A stretch of DNA of 64,000 bases, from contig CM059432.1 of the NCBI GenBank assembly GCA_030390025.1, forward strand, positions 87,112,001-87,176,000, given 5' to 3'. A model generated the notes under the pieces. The model saw only the letters and a program-made list of their open reading frames with translations. It was not told the DNA's origin and ran no database searches. Origin of the DNA: Squalus acanthias (taxonomy: Eukaryota). Shown piece after piece: positions 5,327-57,680 of the stretch. The translations under genes and the position numbers were made by a program. How positions within the stretch are numbered: position 1 is the first letter of the stretch; each line of letters opens with the position of its first letter.

Positions 5327-5573
5327 AAGCAGGTCTTGGAGTTTGGCAGCACTCTGGTGGGGCTGCAAGGGTTTGGTAACATGGGAGCATGCTTTGGGCA
5401 GACTCTGGGCGAGTGGCAGGAGGTGAGATTGCACCGCCCAATGACTTTGCATAGAGGCCCAAGACATTTTAATTGTCAGGCCTTATTTCAGTATACATGA
5501 CAAACTGGAAGCCCTGAACCAGCACTTCATGGCAGCTCGCCATTTGGTGTTCATAGAATCATAAAATCATAGA

Positions 5574-8500: not shown

Positions 8501-9652
8501 GCCACATAATAGGCTTACCAGCAAAGCTGAAGCCATGGAATAAAACGGACAGTGGCAGCATGGATACGGAATTGGCTAAGTGACAGGAAACAGAGAGTAG
8601 TGGTGAACGGTTGTTTTTCAGACTGGAGGAAGGTATATAGTGGTGTTCCCCAGGGGTCGGTTCTAGGACCACTGCTTTTCTTGATATATATTAATGACTT
8701 GGACTTGGGTGTACAGGGCACAATTAAAAAATTTGCAGATGACACTAAACTTGGAAGTATAGTGAACAGTGAGGAGGATGGTGATAGACTTCAAGAGGAC
8801 TTAGACAGGCTGGTTGAATGGGCGGACACGTGGCAGATGAAATATAACGCAGAAACATGCGAAGTGATACATTTTGGTAGGAAGAACGAGGAGAGGCAAT
8901 ATAAACTAAATGGTACAATTCTAAAGGGGGTGCATGAACAGAGAGACCTGGGGGTATATGTGCACAAATCTTTGAAGGTGGCAGGGCAGGTTGAGAAAGT
9001 GGTTAAAAAAGCATATGGGATCCAGGGCTTCATGAATAGAGGCATAGAGTACAAAAGCAAGGAAGTTATGATGAACCTTTGTAAAACACTGGTTCGGCCT
9101 CAACTGGAGTATTGTGTCCAATTCTGGGCACTGCACGTTAGGAAGGATGTGAAGGCCTTAGAGAGGGTGCAGAAAAGATTTACAGGAATGGTTCCAGGGA
9201 TGAGAGACTTTAGTTACGTGGATAGACTGGAGAAGCTGGAGTTATTTTCCTTAGAGCAGAGAAGATTGAGAGGAGATTTGATAGAGGTGTTCAGAATCAT
9301 GAAGGCTCTAGACAGAGTAGATAGAGAGAAACTATTCCTACTGGCAGAAGGATCGAGAACCAGAGGACACAGATTTAAGGTGATTGGCAGAAGAACCAAA
9401 GGCGACATGAGGAAAAACTTTCTTACGCAGCGAGTGGTTAGGATCTGGAATGCACTGATTGAAAGGGTGGTGGAGGCAGATTCAATCGTGGCTTTTAAAA
9501 GGGAATTGGATAAGTACCTGAAGGAAAAAATTTGCAGGGCTATGGGGAAAGGGTGTGGAGTGGGACTAGCTGAAGTGCTCTCGCAGAGAGCCGGCACAGG
9601 CTTGATGGGCCGAATGGCCTCTTTCTGTGCTGTAACCATTCTATGATTCTAT
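5574..9652 (+). mobile_element. near-full-length CR1 LINE, degenerate: ORF1 (Cys cluster, coiled coil, SGNH esterase) and ORF2 (APE + RT)
   Basis: ORF1 GDSIVRG..CLPGARV..HIGIND; APE CVNAQS..ITE, YRPP, GNSDH; RT PQGSVLGP, YINDL, FADD; tail ATTCTATGATTCTA; several frameshifts, stops and deletions; duplicated CCGGAGATAAAGGTAGGCC in the 5'UTR. Confidence 0.95.
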
Positions 9653-11095
9653 AGAAATTTACGCCACAGAAGGAAGCCATTTGGCCCATCGTGTCTGTGC
9701 CGGTCGAAAAAGAGCTATCCAGCCTAATCCTACTTCCCAGCTCTTGGTCCGCGAGGGGTGTGTGGTTGGGCGGGTGGGGGTGGGGGGGGGCGGGTGTGCG
9801 GTGGGAAGGGGCACCCGGGCTGCTGATGTGTAGTTTCCAAAAATAATGATGATGGTTGAATCAGGAGTGGGAAAGGTGTGATAAGTTCAGCCCGGTGATA
9901 TATAAAATATCAAATCCAAGCCAAGGCTTTTGGAAGAAGCTGAGGCCTTCAAACAAAAAGTTTAATAAAGGTATTAAAAGATACAAAAAAACAAATTAAT
10001 GGATACATTTCGATCATATTATTATGAAATATGTGTTTTGCGAATTTTATATATTGCTTATTTTGGACACTAGGGCCTAGAAATTCGATTGCACCCATCA
10101 AAATGGTGGATCAAAATTTTTTTGGTAAAGCATATTAAGTAATTCTATTTATTCATCAATAGACAGTGGTGGTGAAAGTTGATATAGCAAAATTGAATCA
10201 GAACTGTTGACACACCAATTTACAATGGGGAAAAGGTGGCACTAAAGTGTGAGTAAAAATTACATACAACAGGTAATAAGGTTTGTTGCACATGAAGTGT
10301 GCAACATTTACAACATTTTTAATAAGATATACAGACTTCAGCTGAAGTATTTATTTGATTCACATTCAACGGATCCGCCATTTCCGCCACTTCCAGCGTG
10401 ATCCCACCACCAAACACTTCTTCCCCTCCCCTTTCAGCATTTCGAAGGGACCGTTCTATCTGCGACACCCTAGTCCACTCCTCAAACAACCCCAACATCC
10501 TCTCCCCTTCCCACAGCACCTTCCCGTGCAAATGCAGAAGTATGGATAATTTAATATATTTACGCCTGCCCTTTTACCTCCTCCCTTCCCACCGTCCAGG
10601 GCCCCTAACACTCCTTCCAGGTGAAACAGAGATTTAATTGTATTTTTTTCAATTTAGTATATTGTATTCGCTGTTCACGATGCAGTCTCCTCGACATTGG
10701 GGAGACCAAATGCAGATTGGGTGACCACTTTGCGGAACACCTCCGTTCAGTCTGCAAGCATGACCCTGAGCTTCCTGTTGTCCGTCACTTTAATTCTCTG
10801 CCCCACTCCCATTCTGACATTTCTGCCCTCGGCCTCCTACACTGTTCTAATGAAGCTCAGTGGAAGCTTGAGGAACAGCACCACATTTTTTGATTAGGCA
10901 CTTTACAGACTTCTGGACTCAGCATTGAGTTCAACAATTTCAGTTTATAACTACTCCTCCCATTTTTTTCGGACACGGCTGTTGGTAATAATACAGCTAT
11001 TGCCATTTACACCTCCTCTAGACCCATCTTTTGTTTCTTTACTTGTCCCATTACCATCTCCTTTTGCCTTGCACCAACATCCCTTATGACATTTA

Positions 11096-11941
11096 GGTGG
11101 AAAAATTCGGTTGGTTTGCGCCTCCCGTTAGCGCCTTAAGAGGGCGCTAATGGGGCGCAAAGCAACTAGCACCTGGGTGAAGCGATGTTTGCGCCGCTCA
11201 TGAAATTGACCAGACATTTTGCGGCGGCGCTAAACACTACCGCCACGATCTCCTGCGCCCGCAGATCGTGACGTCAGTCGAGTGTGCAATGCCCCGGTAG
11301 CGCCCCAGACCGGATACTGAGTGGCGCCCCCTACCTTGCCACCTGTCGCTAGCAACGACAGGTTGAGGGGAGCGTTTTGCAGTCGGGAAGGGACTAGGGC
11401 AGCGCTATTTAAAGGCGACCGGTTCCTGCCTTTTTTTTCGGCGACATTTTTGCACCACGCATTCTGAGTGAGAGAGAGAAACTTCTGGAGATATTCAATG
11501 CTGTGTTGAGGAGTTTTGGGTACTGAGCAGCAGTTTGCAGTTTCATTTTGAATTGATCTTCCTTGCATCAATTTAGAAGAGACTATGGGGGCTGCACTCT
11601 GACATCTTTCCCTGGGCCTCTCCATTGTTCTTTCCAGCAGATTTGATGTACAGGTCTCTCCAAGATCGACGCTCCCCTTTAAGAATTGGCCAGAGCCAAT
11701 GTGTCTGTGTTCCATTGCTGACTGACATCACATGAGCTTCGCCAGCGCTCTGAGGTAGCACCTCGCTCCTCGGCATTAGCGCCTTAAGAGAGGTGTGCAG
11801 CGCCTGATTTAGCACTCCAATCACCTCCAGGGGCGATAGAAGCCAAGTTTGCAGTTGGAGGCGATAATTAGCGCCAGGCGCTAAACTTTGCGCCCGGCCG
11901 ATAATTGCGCCCCAAACGGGGCGATACCGAATTTCTCCCCC
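11096..11941. mobile_element. Harbinger MITE family A, copy 1
   Basis: TIRs GGTGGAAAAATTCGGT / ACCGAATTTCTCCCCC; TTA TSD at 11093-11095 and 11942-11944; colinear with 32734-33626 and 48903-49795. Confidence 0.92.
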
Positions 11942-12038
11942 TTAATCTCTCCTGCCTTCCACCCTATCACAGATCTTCCCTTTTGTTCTTTCCTCCCCTC
12001 CCCACTTTACCTGCCCCTGCACTTACTTAAAACCTGTT

Positions 12039-12724
12039 GGGGGCTAAATTCGGTTGATTTGCGCCTCCTATTAGCGCCCTAACGCCTCCCGCGAAATTCA
12101 GCGGGAGATTAGCGGCAGCGCTGCACCACCAGTGATGACATCATTGTCATGCGCAGCGCCCCGCTCGTGCCCCGGCTGTAATATTGGGTGGCGCCTCCTG
12201 ACTTACTGCCGGACGCTATGTCCAACGGGATCAGGGGGGCTTACCTGCGGCGGGGCAGCGCGAGTTAAAGGGGAGGTGGTGGGTGGCCATTTTTGTTGCT
12301 GGCTGCCTGCCAGCACCTGCCCCCATTGCTGCCCCCGGCCCCCGTGAAGCCCCCCCGCAGGGTGCCAGCTGCTCTCCGTTAGCCTGGCACTCCTCTTGAG
12401 TGCCGGGCTTGTTTGCTGGCACTCCTGATCCCTGGTGGCCCAGCTGGGCGCCAGGACGCACTGCGCCAGGCCCCTCCCCTTTAATAAGGGGAGGAAGGCC
12501 TGCAGTACTGCGGCGCGACATGCCTCAGCGTGTGGCACTGCGGCATGTAGCGCTGCGATATTGGCTCGTAGCGCCCCAAGAGGGACGCGGGGTGATTCCA
12601 GTAGCGCACTTCCTCCCTCTCGGGGCACTACCTGGGAAAATCGGCTGCGGGGGCGCTAAATTTTTCGGGGCACTAAAATTATCGCCCTGGCGAAGGTAGG
12701 GGGGGCGCTACCCAATTTTTACAA
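12039..12724. mobile_element. GC-rich Harbinger MITE, right TIR degraded
   Basis: Starts GGGGGCTAAATTCGG; many GCGCC/GGCGC motifs; interrupts the PLE 3' region with TGTT on both flanks. Confidence 0.75.
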
Positions 12725-13521
12725 TGTTATATCTCTAACTTTTTCCCATTCTGACGAAAGGTCATTGACATGAAGTGTTAACTCTGTTTTTCTCTCCACA
12801 GATACTGCTTGACCTGCTGAGCATTTCCAGCATTTTCAGTTATTATTTCAGATTTCCAACATCTGCAGTATTTTGCTTATGTATTTGATGAAATGCAAAG
12901 CTTTCTTGCTCCTGTGCAATTTAAATCCTAGCTCACTCAGATTTTCTATATAGGTCTATTATAGTCAAGTTCCCAAGTACCATTGCAAGCTCTCTGAATA
13001 TGTGAGGGCCTAGAAGCAGGTTGGCCAGTGATTATTTTGGCCTACCTGTTGGACAGGTCTAAGGGCGTGATTTTATTACAGCTACCAGCGTCTGATAGGG
13101 TGGGAGACGGACCTATGTTTTGCTAGTTATTTTGAGAGTGTATTGAATAAAGAGTAATTGTGAATAATAGGTGAAGGCAGGCGTCCAGGTTTCTGCGCAT
13201 TAGGCCGGATTCAAAGAAATTCCCAATTTGGGAGGTTTGTCCCCTCGGCCCACCACCTCTCAAGTCAGGGGCTATGTTTGGGGTGGTTGGAGATTCTGAC
13301 CCAAAAAGACCCCAACGGAAACTCACGACTAGGACTGGGATTAAATGTATCCAAGTTCCCCCTCACTGAACTCCTAGCGACTTACACTGGGAGTGCTCAG
13401 CTGGGCCGTTGCAAATTTAGGGCCATAGAATGAGCCCTAATTTTATGTGATGTACACAGCAGCTATTACAACTAATGCTTTATGGAACATGGCCAAATCC
13501 AGGCAGCAATACAGAGCACAG

Positions 13522-13811
13522 TAGAATCATAGAATGATACAGCACAGAAGGAGGCCATTTGGCCCATCGGCCCAATTAATCCCACTCCCCTGCTCTTTCC
13601 CCATAGCCCTGTAAAGTTTTTCCTTTCAAGTATTCATTCAATTCTCTTTTGAATGTTACTATTGAATCTGCTTCCATCACCCTTTCAGGCAGTGCATTCC
13701 AGATCATAACAACTCGCTGTATAAAAAAATGCTTTCTCATGTCGCCTCTGGTTCTTTTGCCAATCATCTTAAATCTGTGTCCTCTGGTTACCAACCTTCC
13801 TGCTACTGGAA
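13522..13811 (-). mobile_element. CR1 3' fragment
   Basis: ORF 13576-13794 TRGHRFK..WNALP..GYG; tail on the minus strand. Confidence 0.9.
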
Positions 13812-15586
13812 GTAGGAGTTAGAAGTTATTTTGTATAAGTCATAACTGATGTGGGAAGCGTAGCATGTTCATTATTTTATATTATTGCATGAAGACAAGT
13901 TGTATTGATTGAATTAAGTGCATTGGATCATAACTGTTGCTCTGTCTGCTCACTTGCTGTGAAATAAAGCAACTTAAGGATTCATATCTGGCCTCCGCTC
14001 ACTAAATGTTTGTTCGGTCTACCTTTGGGGTGACTGAAGGTGCATGCCTGCGAAAGATACAAATATCCCATTCAGATCAAAAGTAGATGCTATTGTTACA
14101 TCCCTGTGTTACACTATCATAAAAATATTGGCCCGTATGGGCATACCCCTAAATGTAAGATGCTCAGACCGCTTACAGGAGTGACAAGCATCACTGAACC
14201 CAAGAGAATACCTAAGGTAAGATGTTAAATTTGTAACACAGGCATCAAGTTTTATCTTCACCATGTCTGTCAAATTCTCTGCTCTCTACAAGATCTCTGG
14301 TTCAATGGTACCCCTCCCATTGTCCTCAAACTGTGTGCCCCTAGCTTTACCACTGCCTGTGCATATCTTACTTCAAATCCACCTATGGGTTCGCTTGGGA
14401 ATTTTGTCATGCTCACCCTGTCCCAGGAAAGGTGATTCCTCTTACTCTTCCAATTAGCACCTTATTGCCCTTACATGTGGAATATCTAAAATTATGGAAA
14501 CTACTGTTAATTCATTTAATTATCCATCACCTTGATAGTTCTGGCAACATAGTATGGAGCTTGAGATTTTCAGCCAGCTTTACTGTCTGATGTCTGAGCA
14601 TGCTCTGTAGAATAACTATCAATAAGTAAAGAAATTCAAACCAATTCGGAGACAATTGTTGTGAGCAATATATTTAATTTCCTATTCCTTCAATTATTCT
14701 AAATCAAAATAAATTCAACTGATTTACATGGATGTTCTTTGTAAGATCATTGCTCGGCCAGCCAGAAAATGAGATCATTTTGTATAAATTATAAGGTTTC
14801 ACATGTAAAATCCCTGAGTAATTTTCATGTCATGCATTTTGTAAATAAATAATACAATGCAGAGATGTGAGAGAAAAAAATCAACCAGAATTCCTTTCAC
14901 ACATCTCCTGGCAATAGGGCATGTTGATAATCAGTCACAGAACTGCTTGGAAAGAAACCCCTACCAATCTTGCTTTAAGACAGCAGTGCCTGTCATTACA
15001 GGTCAGGCAAGCAGAAAAACCCAAGGGAGACGAGTTAATTGAACTCTGAGCTCAGTAGTCACTGGATGGATAAAAAGTCATGTTTCTTCATGCTGGAGTC
15101 AGCTCTGTGTTTTTATACTGGGCACTCGCACGCTGTGGCTTGCCATGTAGCAATTAAAAGGATTGTTGCTTCATCAGCCATCAGGTCATTAGAGATAAAA
15201 AGGATCTCCTGCTGACAGAAGGAAGAGCTTGCCCATTTATTGATGGATAATGATGCATTTGCACATATTGTTGTGCCTTTAATCACCCATTTAACAACAC
15301 TGCATAGTAAACAAAAATAAATTATGTGTTGGTAATTGTGACACAAGTGCTGACTATTAATGACAATGATTTTATTTTAAAAACTCTAGAAAATAAAAGA
15401 TGCTTTGGAGCAGAAGAATGTGAGTTCACATCCTTGAACTACCATGTAATGTGTTCCCAGTCTCAAGTATGCTGTCATGGGGAAGTGCCTCAGGCCTCTC
15501 TGCTTACAGAGCAGCTGAGAGTAGGGTGTCCATATGTCTTTTGTTTCAGAAGGAATGGGGGGAAACAATAATATACCACAAAGAAT

Positions 15587-17617
15587 GATAAGTCACCAGG
15601 ACCAAATGGGATGCATCCTAGGATGCTGAGGGAGGTTAAGGAGAAAATCGCGGAGGTACTGGCCATAATCTTCCAATCCTCCTTAGATACGGGGGTGGTG
15701 CCAGAGGATTGGAGATTTGCAAATGTTACACCCTTGTTCAAAAAAGGGTGTAAAGATAAACTCAGCAACTACAGGCTAGTCAGTTTAACCTTGGTAGTGG
15801 GAAAGATTTTGGAAACGATAATCAGGGACAGAATTAACAGTCACTTGGATAAGTGTGGATTAATTAAGGAAAGCCAGCACGGATTTGTTAAAGGCAAATC
15901 ATGTTTAATCATCTTTCGTTTAGGCACTTTACAGCCTTCCGGACTCAATATCGAGTTCAACAATTTCAGATCATAACCCCGACCCCTACCACATATATAT
16001 ACATTTTATCCACCCTTTTGGTCTGTGCCTTTTTCCTTTTTTTCTCTCTCTCCCCCTATGGCAGCTGTCTCTCATTCTGCCAGCATTTCACACCTCACCT
16101 TTTGTTTCTTAACCTGTCCCATTACCATCTCGTCTTGCCTTGAGCATCTCTTAATGTCTCTACTTATCATAGACCACCCCTTTTGTTCTTTTATTCCTCC
16201 CCCCAGCCTCCCCATTGCATTTTTATCTGTTTAATTTCCTGCTCTTCTCTCAGTTCCGATGAAGGGTTTCGACCTGAAACGTTAACTCTGTTTCTCTCTC
16301 CACGGATGTTGCCTGGCCTGCTGAGTTTTTCCAGCGTTTTCTGTTGTTATTTCATGTTTAATTAACTTGATTGAGTTTTTGATGAGGTAACAGAGAGGGT
16401 TGATGAGGGCAATGCGGTTCACATGGTGTAGATGGACTTCCAAAAGGCGTTTGATAAAGTGCCACATAATAAGGCTTACCAGTAAAGTTGAAGCCCATAG
16501 AATAAAAGGGACAGTGGCAACATGGATACGAAATTGGCTATGTGACAGGAAACAGAGAGTAGTGGTGAATGTTTTTTTCTCGGACTGGAGGAAGGTATAC
16601 AGTGGTGTTCCCCAGGGGTCGGTACTAGAACCACTGCTTTTTTGATATATATTAATGACTTGGACTTGGGAGTACAGGGCACAATTTAAAAATTTGCAGA
16701 TGACACTAAACTTGGAAGTATAGTGAACAGTGAGGAGGATAGTGATAGACTTCAAGAGGACATAGACAGGCTGGTGAAATGGGTGGACACGTGGCAGATG
16801 AAATTTAATGCAGAAACATGCAAAGTGATACATTTTGGTAGGAAGAACGAGGAGAGGCAATATAAACTAAATGGTACAATTCTAAAGGGGGCGCATGAAC
16901 AGAGAGACCTGGGGGTATATGCGCACAAATCGTTGAAGGTGGCATGGCAGGTTGAGACAGCGGTTAAAAAAGCATATGGGATCCAGGGCTTCATAAATAG
17001 AGGCATAGAGTACAAAAGCAAGGAAGTTATGATGAACCTTTATAAAACACTGGTTCGGCCTCAACTGGAGTATTGTGTCCAATTCTGGGCACCGCACTTT
17101 AGGAAGGATGTGAAGGCCTTAGAGAGGGTGCAGAAAAGATTTACGAGAATGATTCCAGGGATGAGGGACTTCAGTTGCATGGATAGACTGGAGAAGCTGG
17201 GGTAGTTCTCCTTAGAGCAGCGAAGGTTGAGAGGAGATTTGATAGAGGTGTTCAAAATCATGAGGGGTCTAGACAAAGTAGATAGAGAGAAACTGTTCCC
17301 ATTGGCAGAAGGGTCGAGAACCAGAGGACACAGATTCAAGGTGATTGGCAAAAGAACCAAAGGCGACATGAGGAAAAACTTTTTTACGCAGCAAGTGGTT
17401 ATGATCTGGAATGCGCTGCCTGAAAGGGTGGTGGAGGCAGATTCTATTGTGGCTTTCAAAAAGGAATTGGATAAGTATCTGAGGGGAAAAAATTTGCAGA
17501 GCTATGGGGATAGGGCAGGGGAGTGGGACTAGCTGAAGTGCTCTTGCAGAGAGCCAGCACGGGCTCGACAGGCCGAATGGCCTCCTTCTGTGCTGTAACC
17601 ATTCTATGATTCTATGA
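15587..17617 (+). mobile_element. CR1 LINE, 5'-truncated, interrupted by a PLE
   Basis: RT motifs across ORFs 15611-17532 with stops and frameshifts; same subfamily and 3'UTR as 5574-9652; tail ATTCTATGATTCTATG. Confidence 0.95.
15910..16351 (+). mobile_element. Penelope-like 3' fragment inserted in CR1
   Basis: IFRLGTLQPSGLNIEFNNFRS C-terminus; pLTR with hammerhead variant CCGATGA..GAAACGTT (16256-16283); flanking direct repeat TCATGTTTAAT at 15899-15909 and 16352-16362. Confidence 0.9.
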
Positions 17618-28975: not shown

Positions 28976-30165
28976 CCCTGAGAATTCTGCGCTCCTCTAA
29001 TTCTGCCCTCTTGAGCATCCCTGATTATAATCACTCAACCTTTGGTGGCCGTGCCTTCTGTTGCCTAGGCCCTAAGCTCTGGAATTCCCTGCCTAAACCT
29101 CTCCACCTCGCTACCTCTCTTTCTTCCTTTAAGACACTCCTTAAAACCTACCTCTTTGACCAAGCTTTTGGTCACCTGCCCTAATTTCTCATTATGTGGC
29201 TCAGTGTTAAATTTTTTGACCTCACTACCACTTCTCTCGACTCCTCCACGGTCTCTAAATTGTCAGACTGCTTGTCCAACACCCAGTTCTGGATGAGCAG
29301 AAATTTTCTCCAATTTAATATTGGGAAGACCGAAGCCATTGTTTTCGGTCCCCGCCACAAACTCCGTTCCCTAGCCACTGACTCCATACCTCTCCCTAAC
29401 ATCTCTCTGAGGCTGAACCACACTGTTCGCAAACTTGGTGTCATATTTGACGCTGAAATGAGCTTCCTACCACATATCCGCAGCATAACTAAGACTGCCT
29501 ATTTCCACCTCCGTAACATCGCCCGTCTCCACCCTTGCCTCAGCTCATCCGCTGCTGAAACCCTCATCCATGCCTTTGTTACCTCTAGACTTGACTATTC
29601 CAATGCACTCCTGGCTGGCCTCCCACATTCAACCCTATGTAAACTTGAGGTCATCCAAAACTCGGCTGCCCGTGTCCTAACTCGCACCAAGCCCCGTTCA
29701 CCCATCACCCCTGTGCTTGCTGACCTACATTGGCTCCCAGTTAAGCAACACCTCGATTTCAAAATTCTCATCCTTGTTTTCAAATCCCTCCATGGCCTCG
29801 CCCCTCCATATCTCTGTAATCTCCTTCAGCCCCACAACCCCCTGAGATATCTGCGCTCCTCTAATTTTGCCCTCTTGAGCATCCGTGATTATAATTGCTC
29901 AACCTTTGGTGGCCATGCCTTCTGTTGCCTAGGCCCTAAGCTCTGGAATTCTCTGCCTAAACCTTTCCGTCTCTCTACCTCTCTTTCCTCCTTTAAGACG
30001 CTCCTTAAAATCTACTTCTTTCACCAAGCTTTTGGTCATCTGCCCTAATTTCTCCTTATGTAGCTCAGTGTCAAATTTCTTGTCTTTTAACACTCCTGTG
30101 AAGCGCCTTGGGACATTTTACTACGTTAAAGGCGCTATGTAAATACAAGTTGTTGTTGTTGTTGC
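28976..30165 (+). mobile_element. L2 LINE 3' region (short 3' piece 28976-29220 followed by a longer copy)
   Basis: ORF 29194-30048 LIHAFVTSRLDYSNALL..HWLPV..KLWNSLP; tail AAATACAAG(TTG)n. Confidence 0.93.
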
Positions 30166-31014
30166 ATTTAGGCTTTCTGGCAGACCTGCCAATGCACCAA
30201 GCATTTAGTTGTGCGTACCCATGAGCTTTGTTTTCGGGGGGTTACCGAATTTCTGGGCCAAGTGGTTTGAACTGGGTGGGGGCAATTTTCAGCTGCCGGC
30301 CACCCGTTTCTCACTGGAGAAGTGGGCCACTGAAAATATAGGCGAGAGGCAGCTCTGCAGCGCCATTGACACCCAAAGCTGCCTGATGCAATTTTCAGGC
30401 CCATAAATGGGCGAGCAGCATGTGCAACCTGTTCCTGGCAGGGGGCTGCTTAAATAGTCCTAGGCCAGGTATAGTACCAAGATTGTAATTTTCAGCTACA
30501 AATGCATGGAACGTCTGCAGTGCATACTCTGCCCATTTGTACCAGGCATTGAGCAGCTTAACCAACGAGGCTTAAAGGGACTCTGGAGGCTGCTCAAAAC
30601 ACAGATCCTCCTGAGCCCACAAAACACTCTGCACACTGCCGGCCCATGCAAGTTCCGCCCCACCTCTGAGATTTCCCCAGCCACCCAGCCGGTTCAGCAG
30701 GGGAGCTGGTCGATTTCCCACCCTCCACAACCAGCTGCTGTGGGTTGCCCAGTTGGTGCTTGCAGCTTGCCGGTGCCGTGTAAGTGAGGTCCCAACTTCC
30801 CAATGCTGGCTTTGAACGGGTGGCGTGGCACTCTGCTAACTTTACGCCTATTTCAGGCAGAGGTCAGAGATCACATTTGGGTGCTCCCAATCTTGAACAC
30901 AAAGAAATCCATGAGCTCCTTGTATTTGGTGTTTAAGGCAAGGCTCACACACAAACAATGCCTGATTTAACAGTCGCACAACACCAGGTTATAGTCCAAC
31001 AGTTTTATTTAAAA

Positions 31015-31050
31015 TTACGAGCTTTCGGAGCACTGCTCCTTCGTCAGGTA
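31015..31050 (-). ncRNA. minimal type I hammerhead ribozyme motif
   Basis: Minus strand reads TAC CTGACGA A GGAGC AGT GCTCC GAAA GC TC GTA: conserved core, helix II, AGCT palindromic helix III. Confidence 0.7.
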
Positions 31051-31056
31051 CACTGC

Positions 31057-31090
31057 ACCTGACGAAGGAGCAGCGCTCCGAAAGTTCGTA
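31057..31090 (+). ncRNA. minimal type I hammerhead ribozyme motif (helix III variant)
   Basis: CTGACGA 31059-31065, GGAGC/GCTCC stem, GAAA 31080-31083, then GTTC. Confidence 0.6.
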
Positions 31091-31958
31091 ATTTTAAATA
31101 AAACTGTTGGACTATAACCTGGTGCTGTGCGACTTCTCATTTTTGTCCACCCCAGTCCAACACCGGCATCTCCGCATCATGATTTAACAGTGCATGGGCT
31201 GCATGGAACTGTGGCCTAGCAAGAGTAAGCGCTTTCAGCAGGGGAGAAAATCAGAAACTACAATTTGAGATGAGAGTGGAAGTGGTGGGGAATATTGGAA
31301 AATTCGGAACATGAGTAGGCTATTCAGCACCTCGTGCCTGCTCCGCCATTTAATTAGATCATGGCTGATCTGTATCTCAACTCCATTTAGCCACCTTCAT
31401 ATCCCTTGATACGCTTACCTGACAAAAGGTCTATTTATCTCAGTCTTGAAAAATTGTCGTGATTTCTACTACTCTTTGTGTGAAAAAGTTCTTCCTGATT
31501 TCAGCCCTGAATTGCCTCGCTCTAATTTTAAGATTATGTCTCCTTGTTCTTGATTCCCCTACATGAGGAAATAGTTTCACTGTAATTACCCTATCAAATC
31601 CTTTTAACATTTTAAACACCTCAATCAGATTACCTCTCAATCTTTTATATTCAAGGGAATACAAGCCATGTTTATGCTACCTGTCCTCGTAATTTAACCC
31701 TCTAAGCCCTGGTATCATTCTGGTGATTCTGCGCTGCACCGCCTCCAAGGCTAATATATCCTTCCTGAGGCACGATGCCCAACATTGAACTCAGTGCTTC
31801 AGATGGGGTCTGACCAAGGCTCTATACAACTGAAGCATAACTTCCCCTCCCTTTGTATTCCAGCCTCCTTGAGATCAAGGCCAACATTCATTAGCCTTTT
31901 TGATTTGATTTTTGTATCTGTTCACTAGCTTTTAATGATTTGTGTACTTGGACTCCAA

Positions 31959-32704
31959 GGGCTGGATTTTGTCTTGGGGTTGGGTTGGGGTCGTGTAATC
32001 CGCATTTCGTGTTTCCCCCCCGACTCCAGATTAATGTGGATGCCTGATGCAATTTTCACTTAATTGGGCAATTGAGTTGGAGCATGTGGGAACCCATGAA
32101 CTAATTAGTGTTTTCAGTCTGAAAACCGCCTCTGATGATGTCATCATTGCTGACTGCCTAGTCTCAGAGACTGTTGGTGAGAGAGGACCTGCCTGGCTTT
32201 TGATGTGAGTGGCCCGGGGGGAGGGGGGGTGCGAGGGAAGAGAGAGAGAGAGAGAATTTTTTTGCCAAGCAAGTCCTCCCAGGCAGTCTCTGAAGACATT
32301 CAATGCAGTAGCATCAGAGGCAACGTTCAGACCTAATACTACTACTACCTTCATCACATCTCCATTGTAATAGTGGACCTGCAGCCGATAGTCAGCTATC
32401 CACGTGTGCTCCCGCCAGGTTTCACTGGAGTGTTTCACACCAGGCGTGCTTCACGTCAGAAGAGGGTTAAACTAGCTACAGCATTTCAAAATGGCATTAC
32501 AGAGCCAATTTAGAGCTTGTTAAGGGCTTTAATGGCCTCTCCCGCCTCTTGAAGGCGGGACGGAGTCGGGAACCCCGCGACTGATTATGTCAAAATTGCG
32601 TGGAGGCGGGATGGAGTCGGGATGGGGTCGGAAACCCTGACCCCACAAATTTAACCCCCACACGCCTCCAAACCCGACTCCATGGGTCATTCAAAATCCA
32701 GCCC
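31959..32704. mobile_element. Harbinger MITE related to the 17844-21090 element
   Basis: Perfect 13-bp TIR GGGCTGGATTTTG / CAAAATCCAGCCC; CAA TSD at 31956-31958 and 32705-32707; subterminal similarity to 17940-18045 and 20880-21060. Confidence 0.92.
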
Positions 32705-32733
32705 CAAATCTCTTCGCTCCTCTACATTTCATA

Positions 32734-33626
32734 GGGGGAAAAATTCAGTTGGTTGCGCCTCCCGTTAGCGCCTTAAGAGGGCGCTAATGGGGCGCAAAGC
32801 AACTAGCGCCCGGGCGCGGCGATGTTTGTGCCGCTCGCGAAATTAACTAGACATTTTGCGGCAGCGTTAAACATTACCGCCACGATCTCCTGCGCCGGCA
32901 GATCGTGACGTCAGTCGAGTGTGCAACACCCCGGTAGCGCCCCGGAGCGGATATTGAGTGGCGCCCCCTGCCTTACCGCCTGCCGCTAGCAACGACAGGT
33001 TGAGGGGCGCGTTTTGCAGTCAGGAAGGGACTGGGGGAGCGCTATTTAAAGGCGACCGATTCCTGCCTTTTTTTGTTGGCGACATTTTTGAACCACGCAT
33101 TCTGAGAGAGAGAGAGAGAGACTTCTGGAGAGATTCAACGCTGTGTGAAGGAGTTTCGGGTATTGAGCCGCACTTTGCAGGTTCATTTTGATTTGCCCTT
33201 CCTTGTATCGATTTAGAAGAGACTGTGGGGGCTGCACTCTGAGCTCTTTCCCTGGAGTTCTCCATTGTTCTTTCCAGCAGATTTGATGTACAGGTTTCTC
33301 CAGGCCGAGATTCAAGGCTGCAATGAGCAGGATGTGGATGGAAAGCAAGATCAACCCTCCCCTTTAAGAACTGGCCGGGGCCATTGTGTCTGTGTTCCAT
33401 TGCTGACTGACATCACATGAGCTTCGCCAGAGCTCTGAGTTAGCGCCTCGCTCCTCAGCCTTTGCGCCTTAAGACAGATGTGTAGCAGCTAATTTAGCGC
33501 TCCAATCACCTCCAGGGGCGATAAAAGTCAAGTTTGCAGTCGGAGACGATAATTAGCGCCAGGCGCTAATCTTTGCGCCCGGCCGATAATTGTGCCTCAA
33601 ACGGGGCGATACTGAATTTTTCCCCC
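32734..33626. mobile_element. Harbinger MITE family A, copy 2
   Basis: Perfect 16-bp TIR GGGGGAAAAATTCAGT; ATA TSD at 32731-32733 and 33627-33629. Confidence 0.95.
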
Positions 33627-33668
33627 ATAGTTTCTTACCATTTTGAAAATACTGCTGTCATCCTGAGA

Positions 33669-34151
33669 ACCAAGGCGGCCTTCGGGATACACGACAGCGC
33701 AAAATCATAGAGCAGAAACTGATAGCCAAGTTGCGCACTCATGAGGATGGCCTCAATCGCGATATCGGGTTCATGTCACGATACAGAACGTGACTTGACA
33801 TCATGGCTGGTCTTTCCAGCCTTTTTTAAAAAAAAACTAACACAAGAACCAAAGTCAACTGCAGAGGATATGCAGCCAGCAGGTGTTTTGACACGTTGGA
33901 CCCCCTGGGACACATCTCATTGTCTTGGCTGTGCTCTTAGTGTGTCTTTGATGTAGGGAAAGATTTGAATACATTTTTTCTGTGTTTATATTGTGAATTC
34001 TGGGAGATTCTCTCACAGCTACTCTACCTGAGGAAGGGGCGACAGCTCCGAAAGCTTGTAATTTTAAATAAATCTGTTGGACTATAACCTGGTGTTGTGC
34101 GACTTCTCATTTTTGTCCACCCCAGTCCAACGCCGGCATCTCCACATCATG
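33669..34151 (+). mobile_element. second Penelope-like family, 3' fragment
   Basis: GGLRDTRQRKIIEQKLIAKLRTHEDGLNRDIGFMSRY (GIY-YIG C-terminus); hammerhead; ATCCTGAGA TSD at 33660-33668 and 34152-34160. Confidence 0.88.
34025..34060 (+). ncRNA. minimal hammerhead ribozyme motif
   Basis: TAC CTGAGGA A GGGGC GACA GCTCC GAAA GC TT GTA. Confidence 0.7.
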
Positions 34152-35990
34152 ATCCTGAGAGAGGACAGCAGGTTTCCGATTTATTTTTTCTGCTGTCTTC
34201 CTGAGAGAGGACAGCAGATTTGTCCTCCACGGAGCCAATGCCACACCCCCAGGGTGGCGCCTCAGCACTCCTAGTAATCTGCTGGAGTGCTGTGACACCC
34301 TGCAAGCCCCTTTTCAACACTGGTAAACCCAGCCACGATGGCAGCAGTCTGTGCTTGTGTGGCAGCAAGCTGAGCTTCCACTGCAGCACTCAGACACTGA
34401 GTGGCTTCTTCTTGTGCTGCAATGGAAGCTGAAACATTGGCCATCAGACGCAGCATGATGGTTGGGTCCACAAGTGCACTAGTATATCTGCCCACCCCTT
34501 CCACGCTGGAAAGGATGGGCTCCACGCTCTGCACAAAGCCCTGTGCAAGGTTGGAGTTGGACTTCTCCATGCTCCTTGACATTGCATTTAAGCTTTCTGG
34601 CAGGCCTGTCAATGCACCAATCAGCTTTGTTCTATAGGCTGCCTCATCGGATTCCTCACCTGCGTCCTGTGCAGCAGAACTCGTGTTTTTTTATTTGTTC
34701 CTGGGATGTGGGCGTCGCTGGCAAGTGCAACATTTATTGTCCATCCCTAATTGCTCTTGAGAAGGTGGTGGTGAGCCGCCTTCTTGAACTGCTGCCGTCC
34801 GTGAGGTGAAGGTACTCCCATCGTGCTGGTAGGGAGGGAGTTCCTCCAGGGAGCTGGCACCTGCGCTACCCTTTCCCCCTGCCCTGCCTGTAGGCCACTT
34901 GTGCTGGGTGTCTCACCACATGCAGATCCCGCATCTAACCTATCCTCTAAAGTACGCAGAGTGTCAGTATCTGAGCTGGTGGCTGGGAGTGTGAAATCAA
35001 GTGATGGTGCTGTGTGTGTAACCTGGCCTGGCAGTGGTGGATAAATGCTGGCCTTGCCAGCGACGCCCACATCCCATCTGCAGCTTGTAAATCAGAAGAG
35101 TTTTTGAGATGAGGGGGAAGTGGAACATAACAGGAGGCAGCCCCTGCTGCCTATTGTTATGTGCCACCTTCTCCTGGAAAAAAGAGGGAGGTGTCAATGA
35201 GTGTCGTACAATCTGTTTAGGTGATATTCCTGTCATGGTTGAATAGCTGACAGTGTGTGCAATCTGTGAGATGTGGGTGTGAGGCTTGCAGCAGTGGTAA
35301 GTGTGAGAGGGTGAGGTGAAGCTATGAATGTGAGGTATGAGTTGTGATTGATGGAGATTATTGGTCGGTGAGTGATGGGGGTGTGGTGCATTGAGCAGTG
35401 TGCGAGTCTAGTGGTTCAGTTGTAAGGATATGGCATTGGAAGATGAATTCACTAACCTTGACCACTCGTGTGAGGTCATTAAACTTTTTGCAGCGCTGCA
35501 TCTAGGTCCACGGGGCTACACTGCTGGCATTGACCATGATGACTATTTGCTCCCATTGCTTTTTCTGATTTTGCCTGGAGGGCCTCCTGCAGATACATGA
35601 CCTCTCTCCTCCTGTCTAACTCCTGCACCAAGGCCTCCAGTGCTGCATCCGAGAACCTTGGAACACACTTTCTCCCCTGTTGTTCCATCAGTACTTCTTC
35701 CTGCTCACACTCTGTTCCCCAGCCAGTTGAATCACCTGCTGCAGTCAGAATATACCTCCCCTTTAAGAGGTGCAGACTAGCTTTAATTGGTGCTAGCCAC
35801 GTACGAACTTGGGCCCCCTGCTGAGTGTGCAGCCACTCAGCAGCGCGCTCAGCACTGGGCTGCTCGCCACAATCATTATAATTAGCAGGCAGCACGAAGT
35901 TGGCGTGCTGCCTGCATCACTTTGAACGGGCACGGGTTGATCCCGCATCGCGATCCCCACACCCGTTTTCGGGGGCAATCCAATTTCTAT
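34152..35990 (-). pseudogene. Harbinger Myb/SANT-like pseudogene and right end (exon 1 35688-35457, exon 2 from 35173)
   Basis: MEQQGRKCVPRFSDAALEALV..CKKFNDLTRVVK|GT, then AG|EKVAHN; stops, frameshift and deletions. Confidence 0.85.
34686..34845 (-). mobile_element. 3' end of a non-CR1 LINE (RTE-X-like; probably the same family as 57717-58430)
   Basis: A-rich tail and a characteristic 3'UTR inserted in the Myb exon; clade assignment from memory. Confidence 0.6.
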
Positions 35991-38374
35991 GTGGGGAATC
36001 TCAGCTGTGAACCAACGTCCTAATTTCCTGTGGCTCATGTATTAGGTAGGGTAAGACCAGAAGAATAATGGGGACGAAATTGGGTGCCTTTGCGCCTCCT
36101 GTTAGCGCTCCCGGGGGGCACTAATGGGGCGTAAATGGCTTTGCGACCAGGTATGGCGCTGACATCGACTCCCGCCATATTCGGCGTGAGTTTTGTGGCA
36201 GCGTTACGGCATTCCACCCCAATCTCCTTCGCCCGAAGACCGTGATGTCATCGCCGTGCGCATCGCCCCGGTAGTGCCCTGGACCCGAAATTGACTTCCG
36301 CCCACCGACAGCTGCAGGAGGCGTGCATCGGGCGGCTGGCTGCTTCGGGGGCGATGATTAAAGGTGAGGTGGCCGAGGTAAGTAAAAAAAAACTTACCTT
36401 TCTTGTTGCAGTTTTTTTTGCGGGTTCCTGCCCTCAATCGATCAGCCCGAAACTCAAGCAGTGTGCCAGGCTGATCGCGTGGGATCGCGGCTGCCTCGGT
36501 GGTCCAGGGAGGTACTTCTTAAATTGCAGAGCCTGCAGCGATGGCCCTTCCCTTTAAGGGAGGGAAGGAGCCTTTGAACGTGGCAGCGCTGCACGGCCCA
36601 GTGTGCAGCACTGCTGAAGTCTCCGCCCCGCCTGCTGCCGATTGTGCTCCAAGAAGGAAGTGGAGTGTCAGTATCTGAGCTGGTGGCTGGGAGTGTGAAA
36701 TCAAGTGATGGTGCTGTGTCTGTAACCTGGCCAGGCACTGGTGGATAAATGCTGGCCTTGCCAGCGACGCCCACATCCCATCTGCAGCTTGTAAATCAGA
36801 AGAGTTTTTGAGATGAGGGGAAAGTGGAACATAACAGGAGGCAGCCCCTGCTGCCTATTGTTATGTGTCACCTTCTCCTGGAAAAAAGAGGGAAGTGTGT
36901 CAGTGAGTGTCGTACAATCTGTTCAGGTGATATTCCTGTCATGGTTGAATAGCTGACAGTGTGTGCAATCTGTGAGATGTGGGTGTGAGGCTTGCAGCAG
37001 TGGTAAGTGTGAGAGGGTGAGGTGAAGCTATGAATGTGAGGTATGAGTTGTGATTGATGGAGATTATTGGTCGGTGAGTGATGGGGGGTGTGGTGCATTG
37101 AGCAGTGTGCGAGTCTAGTGGTTCAGTTGTAAGGATATGGCATTGGAAGATGAATTCACTAACCTTGACCACTCGTGTGAGGTCATTAAACTTTTTGCAG
37201 TGCTGCATCTAGGTCCACAGGGCTACACTGCTGGCATCGACCATGATGACTATTTGCTCCCATTGCTTTTTCTGATTTTGCCTGGAGGGTCTCCTGCAGA
37301 TACACGACCTCTCTCCTCCTGTCTAACTCCTACACCAAGGCCTCCAGTGCTGCATCCGAGAACCTTGGAACACACTTTCTCCCCTGTTGTTCCATCAGTA
37401 CTTCTTCCTGCTCACACTCTGTTCCCCAGCCAGTTGAATCACCTGCTGCAGTCAGAATATACCTCCCCTTTAAGAGGTGCAGACTAGCTTTAATTGGTGC
37501 TAGCCACGTACGAACTTGGGCCCCCTGCTGAGTGTGCAGCCACTCAGCAGCGCGCTCAGCACTGGGCTGCTCGCCACAATCATTATAATTAGCAGGCAGC
37601 ACAAAGTTGGCGTGCTGCCTGCATCACTTTGAACGGGCACGGGTTGATCCCGCATCGCGATCCCCACACCCATTTTCGGGGGCAATCCAATTTCTATGTG
37701 GGGAATCTCAGCTGTGAACCAACGTCCTAATTTCCTGTGGCTCATGTATTAGGTAGGGTAAGACCAGAAGAATATAGGGGGACGAAATTGGGTGCCTTAG
37801 CGCCTCCTGTTAGCGCTCCCGGGGGGCACTAATGGGGCGTAAATGGCTTTGCGACCAGGTACGGCGCTGACATCAACTCCCGCCATATTCGGCGTGGGTT
37901 TTGTGGCAGCGTTACAGCGTTGCACCCCAATCTCCTTCGCCCAGAGACCGTGATGTCATCGCCGTGTGCATCGCCCCGGTAGTGCCCTGGACCCGAAATT
38001 GACTTCCGCCCACCGACAGCTGCAGGAGGCGTGCATCGGGCGGCTGGCTGCTTCGGGGGCGATGATTAAAGGTGAGGTGGCCGAGGTAAGTAAAAAAAAA
38101 CTTACCTTTCTTGTTGCAGTTTTTTTTGCAGGGTTCCTGCCCTCAATCGATCAGCCCGAAACTCAAGCAGTGTGCCAGGCTGATCGCACGGGATCGCGGC
38201 TGCCTTGGTGGTCCAGGTAGGTACTTTTTATATTGCAGAGCCTGCAGCGATGGCCCTTCCCTTTAAGGGAGGGAAGGAGCCTTTGAACGCGGCAGCGCTG
38301 CACGGCCCAGTGTGCAGCGCTGCTGAAATCTCCGCCCCGCCTGCTGCCGATTGCGCTCCAAGAAGGAAGTGGAG
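34959..38374. repeat. tandem duplication, ~1.7-kb unit (34959-36665 and 36663-38374)
   Basis: Colinear copies with scattered differences; GAG microhomology at the junction. Confidence 0.95.
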
Positions 38375-38514
38375 CTCTTGATTTAGCATCCACTTCCTTC
38401 TTGGAGCGCAAACGGCGAATTTTTCAAAAGTTTGAAATCGTTTGCGCCTGGCGCTAACATTTCAAATTTTTAAAAATTAGCGCCCCAAATGGGGCGATAG
38501 TGAATTTCTCCTCC
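37777..38514. mobile_element. GC-rich Harbinger MITE (truncated duplicate at 36070-36665)
   Basis: GGGGGACGAAATT ... AATTTCTCCTCC; flanks ATA / ACA. Confidence 0.8.
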
Positions 38515-41419: not shown

Positions 41420-41525
41420 GAATTCTGATGAAGGATCCGCACTTGAAGCATTAACTCATCCGTTCTCTGCACAGGTGCTAACTGACCTGCTGAGTGTTTC
41501 CAGCGTTTTCTGCTTTCGTTTCGTC
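41420..41525 (+). mobile_element. decayed PLE pLTR fragment
   Basis: CTGATGAAGG..GACCTGCTGAGTGTTTCCAGCGTTTTCTG, as in the other pLTRs. Confidence 0.65.
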
Positions 41526-45415: not shown

Positions 45416-45921
45416 ATCGTATTAGTGTTTGGTTCACTGCCACCTCTCTTCTTGGAATGCCTACCTTGAAGAAGTTCTGCTCTTCTCTTCGACGGGATTT
45501 CCGTTTGGCTCTTCAACCTTGTTCATCTTCATTGATTTCAGTTTCCCTTCTCGTGTTTGATCAGGTATCTACCAAGACTCGGTTTCACAGCCACATTACT
45601 TTCCTCAGCAACTGTCTCCGGTTCCGACTTATCCCACGTGGATTCCAACTAAACTTCCACCCTTCGTGTTTCGGATCCACCCAGGATTACAAATATCTCC
45701 AAGATATTCCTCCTTTGTTCCTTTATCCCCTCCCCCTTTTCCCAGCTTTACCCTGGCCTTAAATCTATTTGATTTCCAGCTCTTCCCAGTTCTGATGAAA
45801 GGTCATCGACCTGAAACGTCAACTCTCTTTCTCTCTCCACGGATGCTGCCTGGCCTGCTGAGTTTTTCCAGCGTTTTCTGTTGTTATTTCGGATTTCCAG
45901 CATCCGCAGTATTTTGCTATC
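45416..45921 (+). mobile_element. internally deleted PLE monomer (ORF N-terminus + pLTR)
   Basis: MPTLKKFCSSLRRDFR..RFHSHITFLSNCL..IPRGFQL from ATG 45457, fused at ~45709 to the pLTR; GAGAAGTGCTGG TSD at 45404-45415 and 45922-45933. Confidence 0.88.
45788..45824 (+). ncRNA. minimal type I hammerhead ribozyme, intact core
   Basis: AGTT CTGATGA A AGGTC ATC GACCT GAAA C GTC AACT: helix I AGTT/AACT, helix II, ACGT palindrome, GUC triplet ending at 45820. Confidence 0.8.
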
Positions 45922-46629
45922 GAGAAGTGCTGGGTTGAAGTTTCTGTGAACACTATTTTTAGCAAACTGATTAAAGCCTTCATGTCGAGTTCCTGTGTGC
46001 ACTAAGTTAACAAAGTTGTGAACTCCGCCACAGAGGAATTTCGACTCCCAACCCCCCAAAATAGCCTGAACCAAATTTAATGCGAGGTCTGCGAAGAGAC
46101 CAGTTCGTTGCCAAGTGGAGAAAACAGCTCCGGTAGCACTTTTCTCAGAAGCTTGACATCGGACGATTCTACTGCTAAATAGTGACGGTAGAGTTAGATG
46201 CTGATATTGAGTGGGCTTCTGCCGAAGTTATGACGGCGGAGCGGGAGCAGCTTCAACGAAATTCCCGATCCCAAAGAAATGGCAAACTGTCACCAGCGGG
46301 CATAGTGCGATCATTTTGATGAATGATTTAAGCACCGTCCAGCTAGTAGTTGGTTATTTTGAGACATCACTTGGATCTGGACACAGGCCAGAGAACCAGG
46401 AGCTGACAGAAGATGTGCTCTGATCTGGTTGCACATTTAGGCACTGAGGTCAACTAGCCCTTTGCTCCTGTTAACTAAGATGGAATAGGAAAAGCAATGG
46501 CAACTCTCCAAAAGTATCTAGTCGGAAGGAAGCTGTTTTCAAAAATGCAAATCAAGTCCTGGAATATTTCTGAAAGGTATTTGATTATAGGCTTAATTTT
46601 GCTATGTTAGCAAAATTGGGACTCCATTT

Positions 46630-56197: not shown

Positions 56198-57680
56198 TGA
56201 CAGCTGTGGCCCAGTCGGTAGCACCCTCACCTCTGAGTCAGAGTGCTTGTGTGCTCAAGTCACCCGACAGAGACTTGAGCACAAAACTCAAAGCTGACAC
56301 TCCAGTGCAGTCTCTCACTACTGCAGTGTCGGAGGAGCTGTCTTTCGGATGAGACGTTAAACCGAGGCATCATCTGCTCTGGTGGACGTAAAAGATCCCA
56401 TCGCACTATTTCAAAGAAGAGCAGGGGAAAGCAGTGTTCTGGCCAATATTTATCCCTCAAACAGCATCGTGGTTGACACGGCCCTCGACCGTGTCCGTTC
56501 TATCTCCCGCACTTCTGCCCTCACCCCTGCCCCTCCCTCCCGGAACCCCTTGTCCTCACCTTTCACCCCACCAGCCTCCACATTCAACAGATCATCCTCC
56601 GCCATTTCCGCCACCTCCAACGTGATCCCACCACCAAACGTATCTTCCCCTCACCTCCCCTTTCAGCATTCCGTAGGGACCACTCCCTCCGAGACACCCT
56701 AGTCCACTCCTCTATCACCCCCAGCACCCCTTCCCCCTCGCCTGGCACCTTCCCGTGCAAGCGCAGGAGATGCAACACCTGCCCTTATACCTCCCCCCTT
56801 CCCACTCTCCAGGGCCCCAAACACCCCTTCCAGGTGAAACAGCGATTTACTTGTACTTCTTGCATTCTAGTATACTGTATTCGCTGCTCACGATGTGGTC
56901 TCCTCTACATTGGGGAGATCAAACGCAGATTGGGTGACTGCTTTGCGGAACACCTCCGTTCAGTCCGTAAGGGTGACCCCGAGCTTCCGGTCGCCTGTCA
57001 CTTTAACTCACCGCTCCACTCCCACTCAGACCTCACCGTCCTCGGCCTCGTGCATTGTTCCACGGAAGCTCAGCGTAAGCTCGAGGAACAGCACCTCATC
57101 TTCTGATTAGGCACTTTACAGCCTTCCGGACTCAATATCGAGTTCAACAATTTCAGATCATAACCTCGGCCCCTACCATTTTTATCCCCCCTTTTGGTTT
57201 GTGCCTTTTCCCTTTTTTTCTCTCTCTCCCACATGGCAGCTGTCTCTCATTCTGCCAACGCATTTCACACTTCTGAGCCATCTTTTGTTTCTTAACCTGT
57301 CCTATTACCATCTCGTCTCGCCTTGTGTATCTCTTAATGTCTCTACGTCTCACAGACCTTCCCTTTTGTTCTTTTATCCCTCCCCCAGCCTCCAAACTTG
57401 CTTTTTTATCTGTTTCATTTCCTGCTTTTTTCTCAGTTCTGACGAAGGGTTTCAACCTGAAATGTTAACTCTGTTTCTCTCTCCACGGATGTTGCCTGGC
57501 CTGCTGAGTTTTTCCAGCGCTTTCTGTTGTTATTTCACTAAAAGAGAGCTTGCTGTGTGCAAATTATCTGCTGTGTTTCCTACATTATAACAGTGACTAC
57601 ACTTCAAAAAGTACTTAATTTGCTGTAAAGCACTTTGGGACGTCTGTGGTCATGTAAGGCGCTAAATAAATGCAAGACTT
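56198..57680 (+). mobile_element. DeuSINE/SacSINE1-like tRNA SINE (56198-56468 and 57538-57680) split by a PLE
   Basis: A-box-like TGGCCCAGTCGG; Deu-like core GGATGAGACGTTAAACCGAGG..AAAAGATCCCA; tail GGCGCTAAATAAATGCAAG. Confidence 0.8.
56469..57537 (+). mobile_element. Penelope-like 3' fragment (Cys-rich linker, GIY-YIG, pLTR)
   Basis: PCKRRRCNTC; LVYCIRCSRCGLLYIGE..RR..EH..HFN; hammerhead variant CTGACGA..GAAATGTT at 57439-57466. Confidence 0.93.

Follow-up and report, generated by a model that had tools for sequence, protein, structure and literature searches.

A truncated Penelope-like element terminal repeat inserted head-to-head in Squalus acanthias, with one minimal hammerhead motif per strand

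A palindrome at positions 30963-31191 of the window (the whole stretch of 64,000 nt of Squalus acanthias DNA that was analysed) was found to have the structure of a 5'-truncated terminal-repeat insertion of a Penelope-like element (PLE) with a target-site duplication (TSD), and its inverted half was likely produced by fold-back copying of the first cDNA strand (probability of this reading about 0.68). This anatomy is accompanied by a family link to a PLE reverse transcriptase (RT) with a GIY-YIG endonuclease, by a high copy number and by varied, mostly near-symmetric head-to-head joints. A recurrent by-product of PLE insertion, with hot spots set by the sequence, fits these data best, rather than a one-off event. 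The features of the palindrome and of a sister copy in the window were as follows.

30963-30974, plus strand: target-site duplication, left copy; its ends overlap the element ends, and the likeliest duplication is 30965-30974, starting ATT
30972-31049, minus strand: PLE terminal repeat (pLTR end), inverted and tail-less
31016-31050, minus strand: minimal hammerhead motif, better preserved than its plus-strand counterpart; predicted cut between 31019 and 31018
31050-31056, no strand: 7-nt loop ACACTGC, the head-to-head junction
31056-31090, plus strand: minimal hammerhead motif with slight decay; predicted cleavage between 31087 and 31088
31057-31134, plus strand: PLE terminal repeat, direct copy (right arm)
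31088-31155, plus strand: putative 68-nt GT...AG intron of the PLE leader, from motifs only, starting at the predicted ribozyme cut
31135-31181, plus strand: one-sided tail of about 47 nt, closing with CATCATG like the sister copy
31180-31191, plus strand: target-site duplication, right copy
33669-34151, plus strand: sister insertion, 5'-truncated, direct copy only, with tail; 9-bp TSD at 33660-33668 and 34152-34160
33671-33793, plus strand: last 40 codons of a PLE GIY-YIG endonuclease, 89% identical (38 aa) to residues 605-642 of protein P0004

The inverted arms, 30972-31052 and 31054-31134, were 81 nt long and 95% complementary, and ranked as the longest and best-paired among 18 inverted repeats within 400 nt in the 64-kb window. 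A first-pass annotation of the sequence had described 81-bp arms with four mismatches. This was confirmed, and as one of the four mismatches is central, the description could be refined to a folded stem of 78 bp with three mismatches (30972-31049 / 31057-31134) and a 7-nt loop (31050-31056). The predicted minimum free energy of the hairpin was -140 kcal/mol (z -21.9), and none of 200 shuffled sequences folded equally well. Two short hairpins elsewhere in the window, at 9591-9703 (45-nt arms, 82%) and 38346-38416 (28-nt arms, 96%), were unrelated to the PLE end.

The 12-bp direct repeat that the annotation had placed around the palindrome was exact (30963-30974 / 31180-31191). Exact 12-bp repeats at a spacing of 150-300 nt numbered 85 and only three of them, including that of the palindrome, were outside a tandem array at 4400-5400. 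The array itself was delimited to 4411-5326, with a period of about 29/58 nt and copies about 96% alike. The first two bases of the direct repeat also fit the 3' end of the element, which is CATCATG as shown by the sister copy, and the last three also fit the inverted arm; the true TSD is therefore 7-12 bp long, most likely 10 bp starting ATT. The inverted pLTR and the terminal tail were both recovered as annotated, the tail on the right side of the palindrome only. Stops were present in all three frames of 31050-31183, that is the right arm and the tail, and the palindrome is without an open reading frame (ORF), in agreement with the earlier claim of no coding sequence.

Contigs of four runs were mapped to 30760-31400: X1 and X5 (organism A, two samples), X6 (organism B) and X16 (organism A, RNA by guess, with sequence not assignable to the palindrome locus). 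The left junction was covered by contigs spanning 30760-30998 in both X1 and X5, which reached 27 nt into the inverted arm. The centre of the locus and the right junction were spanned by no listed contig of the four runs, and the right flank at 31200-31287 was almost without coverage in them.

The PLE origin of the terminal sequence, proposed by the first-pass annotation, was substantiated by the sister copy. The sister end at 34045-34153 was 94% identical to the palindrome end over 109 nt, a hammerhead motif was located at 34025-34060, and the same insertion encodes the GIY-YIG C-terminus listed above. It was the only other copy of this PLE end in the window (34016-34153). A search for longer proteins with the sister fragment gave three candidates, all three named Heptranchias perlo by their sources. 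P0004, which is an ORF of a relative and not of the window, carries RVT_1, DKG, YIDD, a CX4CxxC linker and VVY...WYIG (GIY-YIG). The terminal sequence thus belongs, via the sister copy, to an element encoding a PLE RT with a C-terminal GIY-YIG domain. The linker motif of P0004, CHSNLCKTC at 505, conforms to the CX2-5CxxC pattern, which marks Neptune or Nematis and is absent from Penelope/Poseidon according to the available part of PMC8557442. The proteins closest to the sister fragment are shark Penelope-like ORFs, with a zinc finger that is of Neptune/Nematis type by the linker motif.

No locus related to P0004 was found in prokaryote genomes or viral contigs, and the patterns derived from the family gave no loci either (18-nt pattern in viral contigs, 24-nt pattern in prokaryote genomes). 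Four metagenome-contig loci of the 18-nt pattern had matches no longer than 18-22 nt and were dismissed as chance. A Pfam scan of 21 of the 36 ORFs of at least 150 aa, which short exons would escape, identified no host gene; four of the 21 ORFs had matches, all to RVT_1. Two predicted isoforms from Heptranchias perlo, P0003 and P0013, named XRCC5 (Ku80) and DIPK2Ab, were found to group with the PLE ORF. P0003 ends in a GIY-YIG domain instead of the usual Ku80 C-terminus. Both are either gene-model artefacts or exonised PLE pieces.

A motif search located hammerhead cores on both strands, at 31047-31023 (minus) and 31059-31083 (plus). Each arm contains CUGACGA, a bulged A, a 5-bp stem II closed by G-C, GAAA and a two-base spacer, followed by U16.1-C17. 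The minus-strand motif was complete, with a 3-bp stem I (UAC/GUA), a palindromic AGCU, C17 and every core base kept. The plus-strand motif carried two substitutions, one leaving the third stem I pair as a C-A mismatch and the other giving AGUU in place of AGCU. The full descriptor of minimal hammerheads taken from the accessible portion of PMC4209133 (CUGANGA, bulge, stem II with G10.1-C11.1, GAAA, palindromic 15.2-16.2, UH, short stem I) was found on the minus arm, so that the annotated minimal hammerhead per strand holds in full there and with two substitutions on the plus arm. A loose hammerhead pattern gave 11 matches in the window against 5.6 expected, and the motif call therefore rests on the full anatomy. 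An Rfam scan of 29000-36000 gave four matches at E<=1, none of them to hammerhead models; those to mir-1597 (43 bits, gathering score 93) and mir-143 were discarded, as they reflect nothing but the hairpin. In the family at large, the majority letter at 31085 was C (98-99% of depth), and that at 31090 was G (77% in X1, 92% in X5), which would pair with the C at 31056. The latter suggests C-G/U-A covariation in stem I, as seen in family frequencies and not on single molecules.

In the full hairpin the pairing probability of stem II was 0.0 on both strands, consistent with the earlier proposal that the ribozyme is sequestered by its own antisense arm, and forcing stem II cost 21 (plus) and 24 (minus) kcal/mol. 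Whichever strand of a head-to-head palindrome is transcribed, the antisense arm is made first and the ribozyme second, and folding of transcript prefixes showed the ribozyme paired as it emerged. As the two motifs are on opposite strands they cannot meet in one RNA, and no dimer can form in cis; isolated arms, cofolded by free energy, did not yield the active dimer. In a read-through transcript of either strand the hammerheads are predicted to be locked in the 78-bp stem, and ribozyme activity of this copy is unlikely. Production of double-stranded RNA from such a transcript is plausible.

The 68-nt GT...AG stretch that starts at the predicted plus-strand cut was also present in the sister copy (34058-34125). 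A pyrimidine tract and a CTCAT resembling a branch point lie within it, its end falls inside the tail, and the tail is closed by an ATG. On motif grounds the stretch may be an intron of the PLE leader, with its 5' splice site coinciding with the ribozyme cut. The joints listed (the best 15 of 137 and 12 of 96) included neither a splice joint 31087>31156 nor an empty-site joint 30974>31192, which is neutral either way.

The arms were highly repeated in the contig data. The depth of single-copy flank was 8.73 in X1 and 27.8 in X5, and the summed arm depth amounted to 2.8-5.3 x10^5 times single-copy depth. Divided by 31 for k-mer overlap, this gives about 9,000-17,000 arms; as summed depth is not a copy number, the figure is an order of magnitude. 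Small indels at the centre of the palindrome were present in contigs of all three DNA runs, although the indel table does not give how far the contigs reach into the left arm. A deletion of one base at 31050 reached 79 times single-copy depth in one X5 contig and was present in 10 contigs of X1 and four of X6. A deletion of six bases at 31050 had a mean of 44 times single-copy depth (X1), a one-base deletion at 31051 was found at 36 times (X1) and 4 times (X5), and a one-base deletion at 31055 at 3 times (X1) and in four contigs of X6. The centres formed a spectrum of eight indel types at 31032-31055 and 137 joints.

The best-supported joints, 15 of the 137 in the joint table and 12 of the 96 rows of a second table, were reduced to 19 distinct same-strand joints, one opposite-strand joint being left out. 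Nominally 15 of the 19 lay within 13 nt of perfect symmetry and the other four were off by 19-48 nt; among joints with at most three known letters between the two sides, five of seven were symmetric. The direct arm started at 31091-31100 in 14 of the 19, at 31052-31056 in two and beyond 31100 in three. These counts of symmetry and of starts are indicative, as only the best rows were used and the alignment ends are biased by mismatches between the window and the family at 31085-31095. One asymmetric joint, 31002>31056, was found at 14 times single-copy depth in X1 and 11 times in X5, and was also present in X6. The two arms of the palindrome differ from each other at three of 79 columns, and each differs from the sister copy at 8-9 of 79. 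Letters specific to the arms of this palindrome were rare in the family, the window letter accounting for 1-2% of depth at 31085 and 0.5-1% at 31125.

Family sequence along the arms and the tail was also present in X16. In that run, T>C at 31099 made up 30% of depth (40 contigs), compared to 0 in X1 and 0.01% in X5. A T>C change at 31141, which is in the unpaired tail outside the duplex, had equal depth and an equal number of contigs. The change at 31099 looks like A-to-I editing of the antisense arm, but given the equal change at 31141 a single expressed variant locus explains it equally well.

The insertion shows a head-to-head inverted, 5'-truncated copy, a tail on one side and a variable TSD (7-12 bp, and 9 bp for the sister copy) at an AT-rich target, and both TSDs most likely begin with AT. 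In the favoured account, the element endonuclease would have nicked an ATT target, and reverse transcription would have started at the tail end and run for about 130 nt, stopping just 5' of the hammerhead core, about 9 nt upstream. The cDNA end would then have turned back on itself over a loop of no more than 7 nt, been extended by copying as far as the internal boundary that lacks the tail, and been joined there to the upstream end of the target. The hammerheads would be passengers of the pLTR, and the palindrome would at most add an RNA duplex to any transcript crossing it. Against this account, the 47-nt tail exceeds the 30-40 nt in print, and four of the 19 joints are asymmetric.

The inverted half can also be explained by two separately primed cDNAs, where a dimeric enzyme nicks both strands and primes at the tail end and at an internal start, and the truncated products are joined head-to-head. 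From one locus the two routes are not distinguishable. The PLE of Anolis carolinensis, PAc, cleaves and extends both strands, is a predicted dimer and has two RT start sites bounding the tail (PMC11167929, in its accessible part), and separate priming accounts directly for the fixed tail-less start of the inverted arm; the four asymmetric joints listed, off by 19-48 nt, agree with it. Independent truncation does not, however, predict loops of 3-13 nt (nominally 15 of 19 joints) unless the cDNA ends anneal, and the arms resemble one another more than either resembles the sister copy, which a shared subfamily could also bring about. Fold-back is thus favoured by the short loops of most joints together with the close match of the arms, and separate priming is considered unlikely. 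An artefact of assembly or library preparation, such as a fold-back chimera, would agree with the lack of a listed contig across the locus centre or right junction, but its probability is negligible: the arms differ at three positions, an exact TSD closes the unit, the left junction was present in two samples and the tail-less boundary is a known PLE signature.

The first-pass annotation had left the choice between a one-off inverted truncation and a non-autonomous hairpin family, and had named a unique junction as the mark of the former. The junction was not unique: centre variants occurred at 3-79 times single-copy depth and the joints were varied, which removes the one-off event. As for the family, nothing shows self-propagation, and a recurrent by-product fits better than both. 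Varied joints with recurring near-identical centres are what a recurrent by-product with hot spots is expected to give, and since hot spots alone yield recurring centres, a shared junction is no proof of self-propagation even where the TSDs differ. Transcription of a finished palindrome and its re-insertion as a unit by the PLE enzyme would agree with centre-indel contigs at high depth (79, 44 and 36 times), also in the second species (X6), and with joint 31002>31056 (14 times in X1, 11 times in X5, also X6); trans-mobilisation of pLTR sequences on their own is possible, according to the part of PMC3846280 available. The high-depth centre variants (36-79 times) and this joint (11-14 times, also in the second species) could therefore represent re-mobilised finished palindromes. 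Against a self-propagating family, the centres form a spectrum of eight indel types and 137 joints and not a single sequence, hot-spot fold-back gives recurring junctions without re-mobilisation, the arm-specific letters of this copy are rare (1-2% at 31085, 0.5-1% at 31125), and a 78-bp duplex would probably be a poor RT template. This explanation is regarded as slightly less likely still than separate priming. A ribozyme switch controlled by its antisense arm, as the annotation had suggested, or a selected source of small RNA, is very improbable. The minus-strand motif keeps all core bases and X16 (RNA by guess) contains family sequence along arms and tail; an 81-bp duplex, if transcribed, would moreover be a substrate for double-stranded RNA enzymes. 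The ribozyme nevertheless follows its own complement in transcription and is paired in prefix folding, stem II costs 21-24 kcal/mol, the motifs are on opposite strands with no cis dimer, and there is no signature of selection at the locus, two of the three arm mismatches falling on ribozyme positions. In the published work, as far as accessible, single minimal hammerheads did not cleave in vitro (PMC4209133) and that of PAc required protein (PMC11167929).

A more far-reaching version of fold-back copying is rather unlikely. Here the centres would mark the starts of the RNA templates, a cluster 3-12 nt past the cut being the in vivo footprint of ribozyme-cut templates, and a second cluster could be a MITE-like, self-propagating palindromic PLE derivative. 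In 14 of the 19 joints listed, the direct arm started 3-12 nt past the predicted cut. The second cluster of centres, just upstream of the ribozyme, includes the palindrome, and its centres are repeated tens of times. The cluster near the cut site could also be due to the AT-rich, self-complementary TTTAAA at the same place, or to alignment bias, without any cleavage.

The layout of the palindrome is known from other PLE insertions. Craig et al. 2021 (PMC8557442) described a 5'-truncated inverted copy lying adjacent, with a 30-40 bp tail at one end, and Arkhipova et al. 2013 (PMC3846280) described inverted pLTRs shorter than the direct ones, TSDs of 9-10 bp and palindromes at head-to-head junctions, read as self-priming. 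Like these EN+ insertions, the palindrome has a tail-less head-to-head inverted copy, a tail at one end, a TSD of about 9-12 bp, a short palindromic junction and 5' truncation. It differs from what is accessible of these accounts in consisting of the pLTR end only, without any ORF next to the arms or separating them, and in its tail of 47 nt compared to 30-40 nt. Among the minimal hammerheads of metazoan PLEs, opposite-strand pairs separated by 100-700 bp are mentioned (Cervera and De la Pena 2014, PMC4209133). The core boxes, the bulged base between 9 and 10.1, G10.1-C11.1, the palindromic 15.2-16.2 and the short stem I are shared with these, whereas the cores of the palindrome are separated by 11 nt only, within one perfect hairpin; the available portion of that paper does not name sharks.

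PAc is a Poseidon-type PLE. Its tail is bounded by two RT start sites, and the enzyme shows a preference for ATT and acts by extension on both strands (Frangieh et al. 2024, PMC11167929, partial text). The PAc hammerhead cleaves only with protein and is dispensable for insertion in vitro, according to the same excerpts. A hammerhead in the pLTR, a tail and an AT-rich target starting AT(T) are shared with PAc, but the shark ORF has the CX2-5CxxC linker that is absent from Penelope/Poseidon. The accessible sections of the PAc study do not address the formation of inverted arms, and report that no reads ended where the hammerhead cuts. Non-LTR retrozymes (Cervera and De la Pena 2020, PMC7229834; Li et al. 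2026, preprint 10.64898/2026.07.22.740005) are likewise non-coding, hammerhead-bearing, 150-400 nt long and PLE-related, with larger TSDs. The comparison with retrozymes made in the first-pass annotation did not hold. Retrozymes are head-to-tail tandem repeats of at least two units with ribozymes on one strand, which release a monomer circle, in the parts of these two reports available, whereas the palindrome is head-to-head with one motif per strand and cannot do so.

Both the architecture and the ribozyme type are known, and the shark family is a new member. A single locus of this kind is ordinary, being one among many thousands of PLE ends in the genome and laid down in a described pattern. 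A literature search, with most subscription papers, Repbase reports and supplements outside its scope, gave nothing on shark PLEs, on a non-autonomous PLE family of palindromic form, on self-priming by fold-back in connection with hammerheads, on the statistics of fold-back junctions or on edited PLE hairpins. PMC8557442 and PMC11167929 leave open by which route PLEs come to insert as tandem and inverted copies, and whether hammerhead cleavage takes place in vivo. Thousands of tiny fold-back insertions with TSDs are a natural data set, and counting junctions in one assembly could address both questions. If the template-start interpretation is true, the cut-site cluster would be in vivo evidence that ribozyme-cleaved RNA serves as retrotransposition template, which was not seen for PAc. 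In annotation, palindromes of this kind can also pass for MITEs or for miRNA hairpins, as the sub-threshold mir-1597 match illustrates.

Ends of a second PLE family were observed in the window at 12743-12877, 16182-16353, 41423-41523, 45696-45925 and 57348-57536, with a sixth match of 41 nt at 11971-12011. None of them has a local inverted arm. Two of these ends carry a minimal hammerhead with a 4-bp stem I (45792-45816 and 57439-57462). GIY-YIG-like remnants were found at 56546-57187 and 10564-10821, and a head-to-tail duplication of about 1.7 kb with 97.5% identity occupies 34959-38374.
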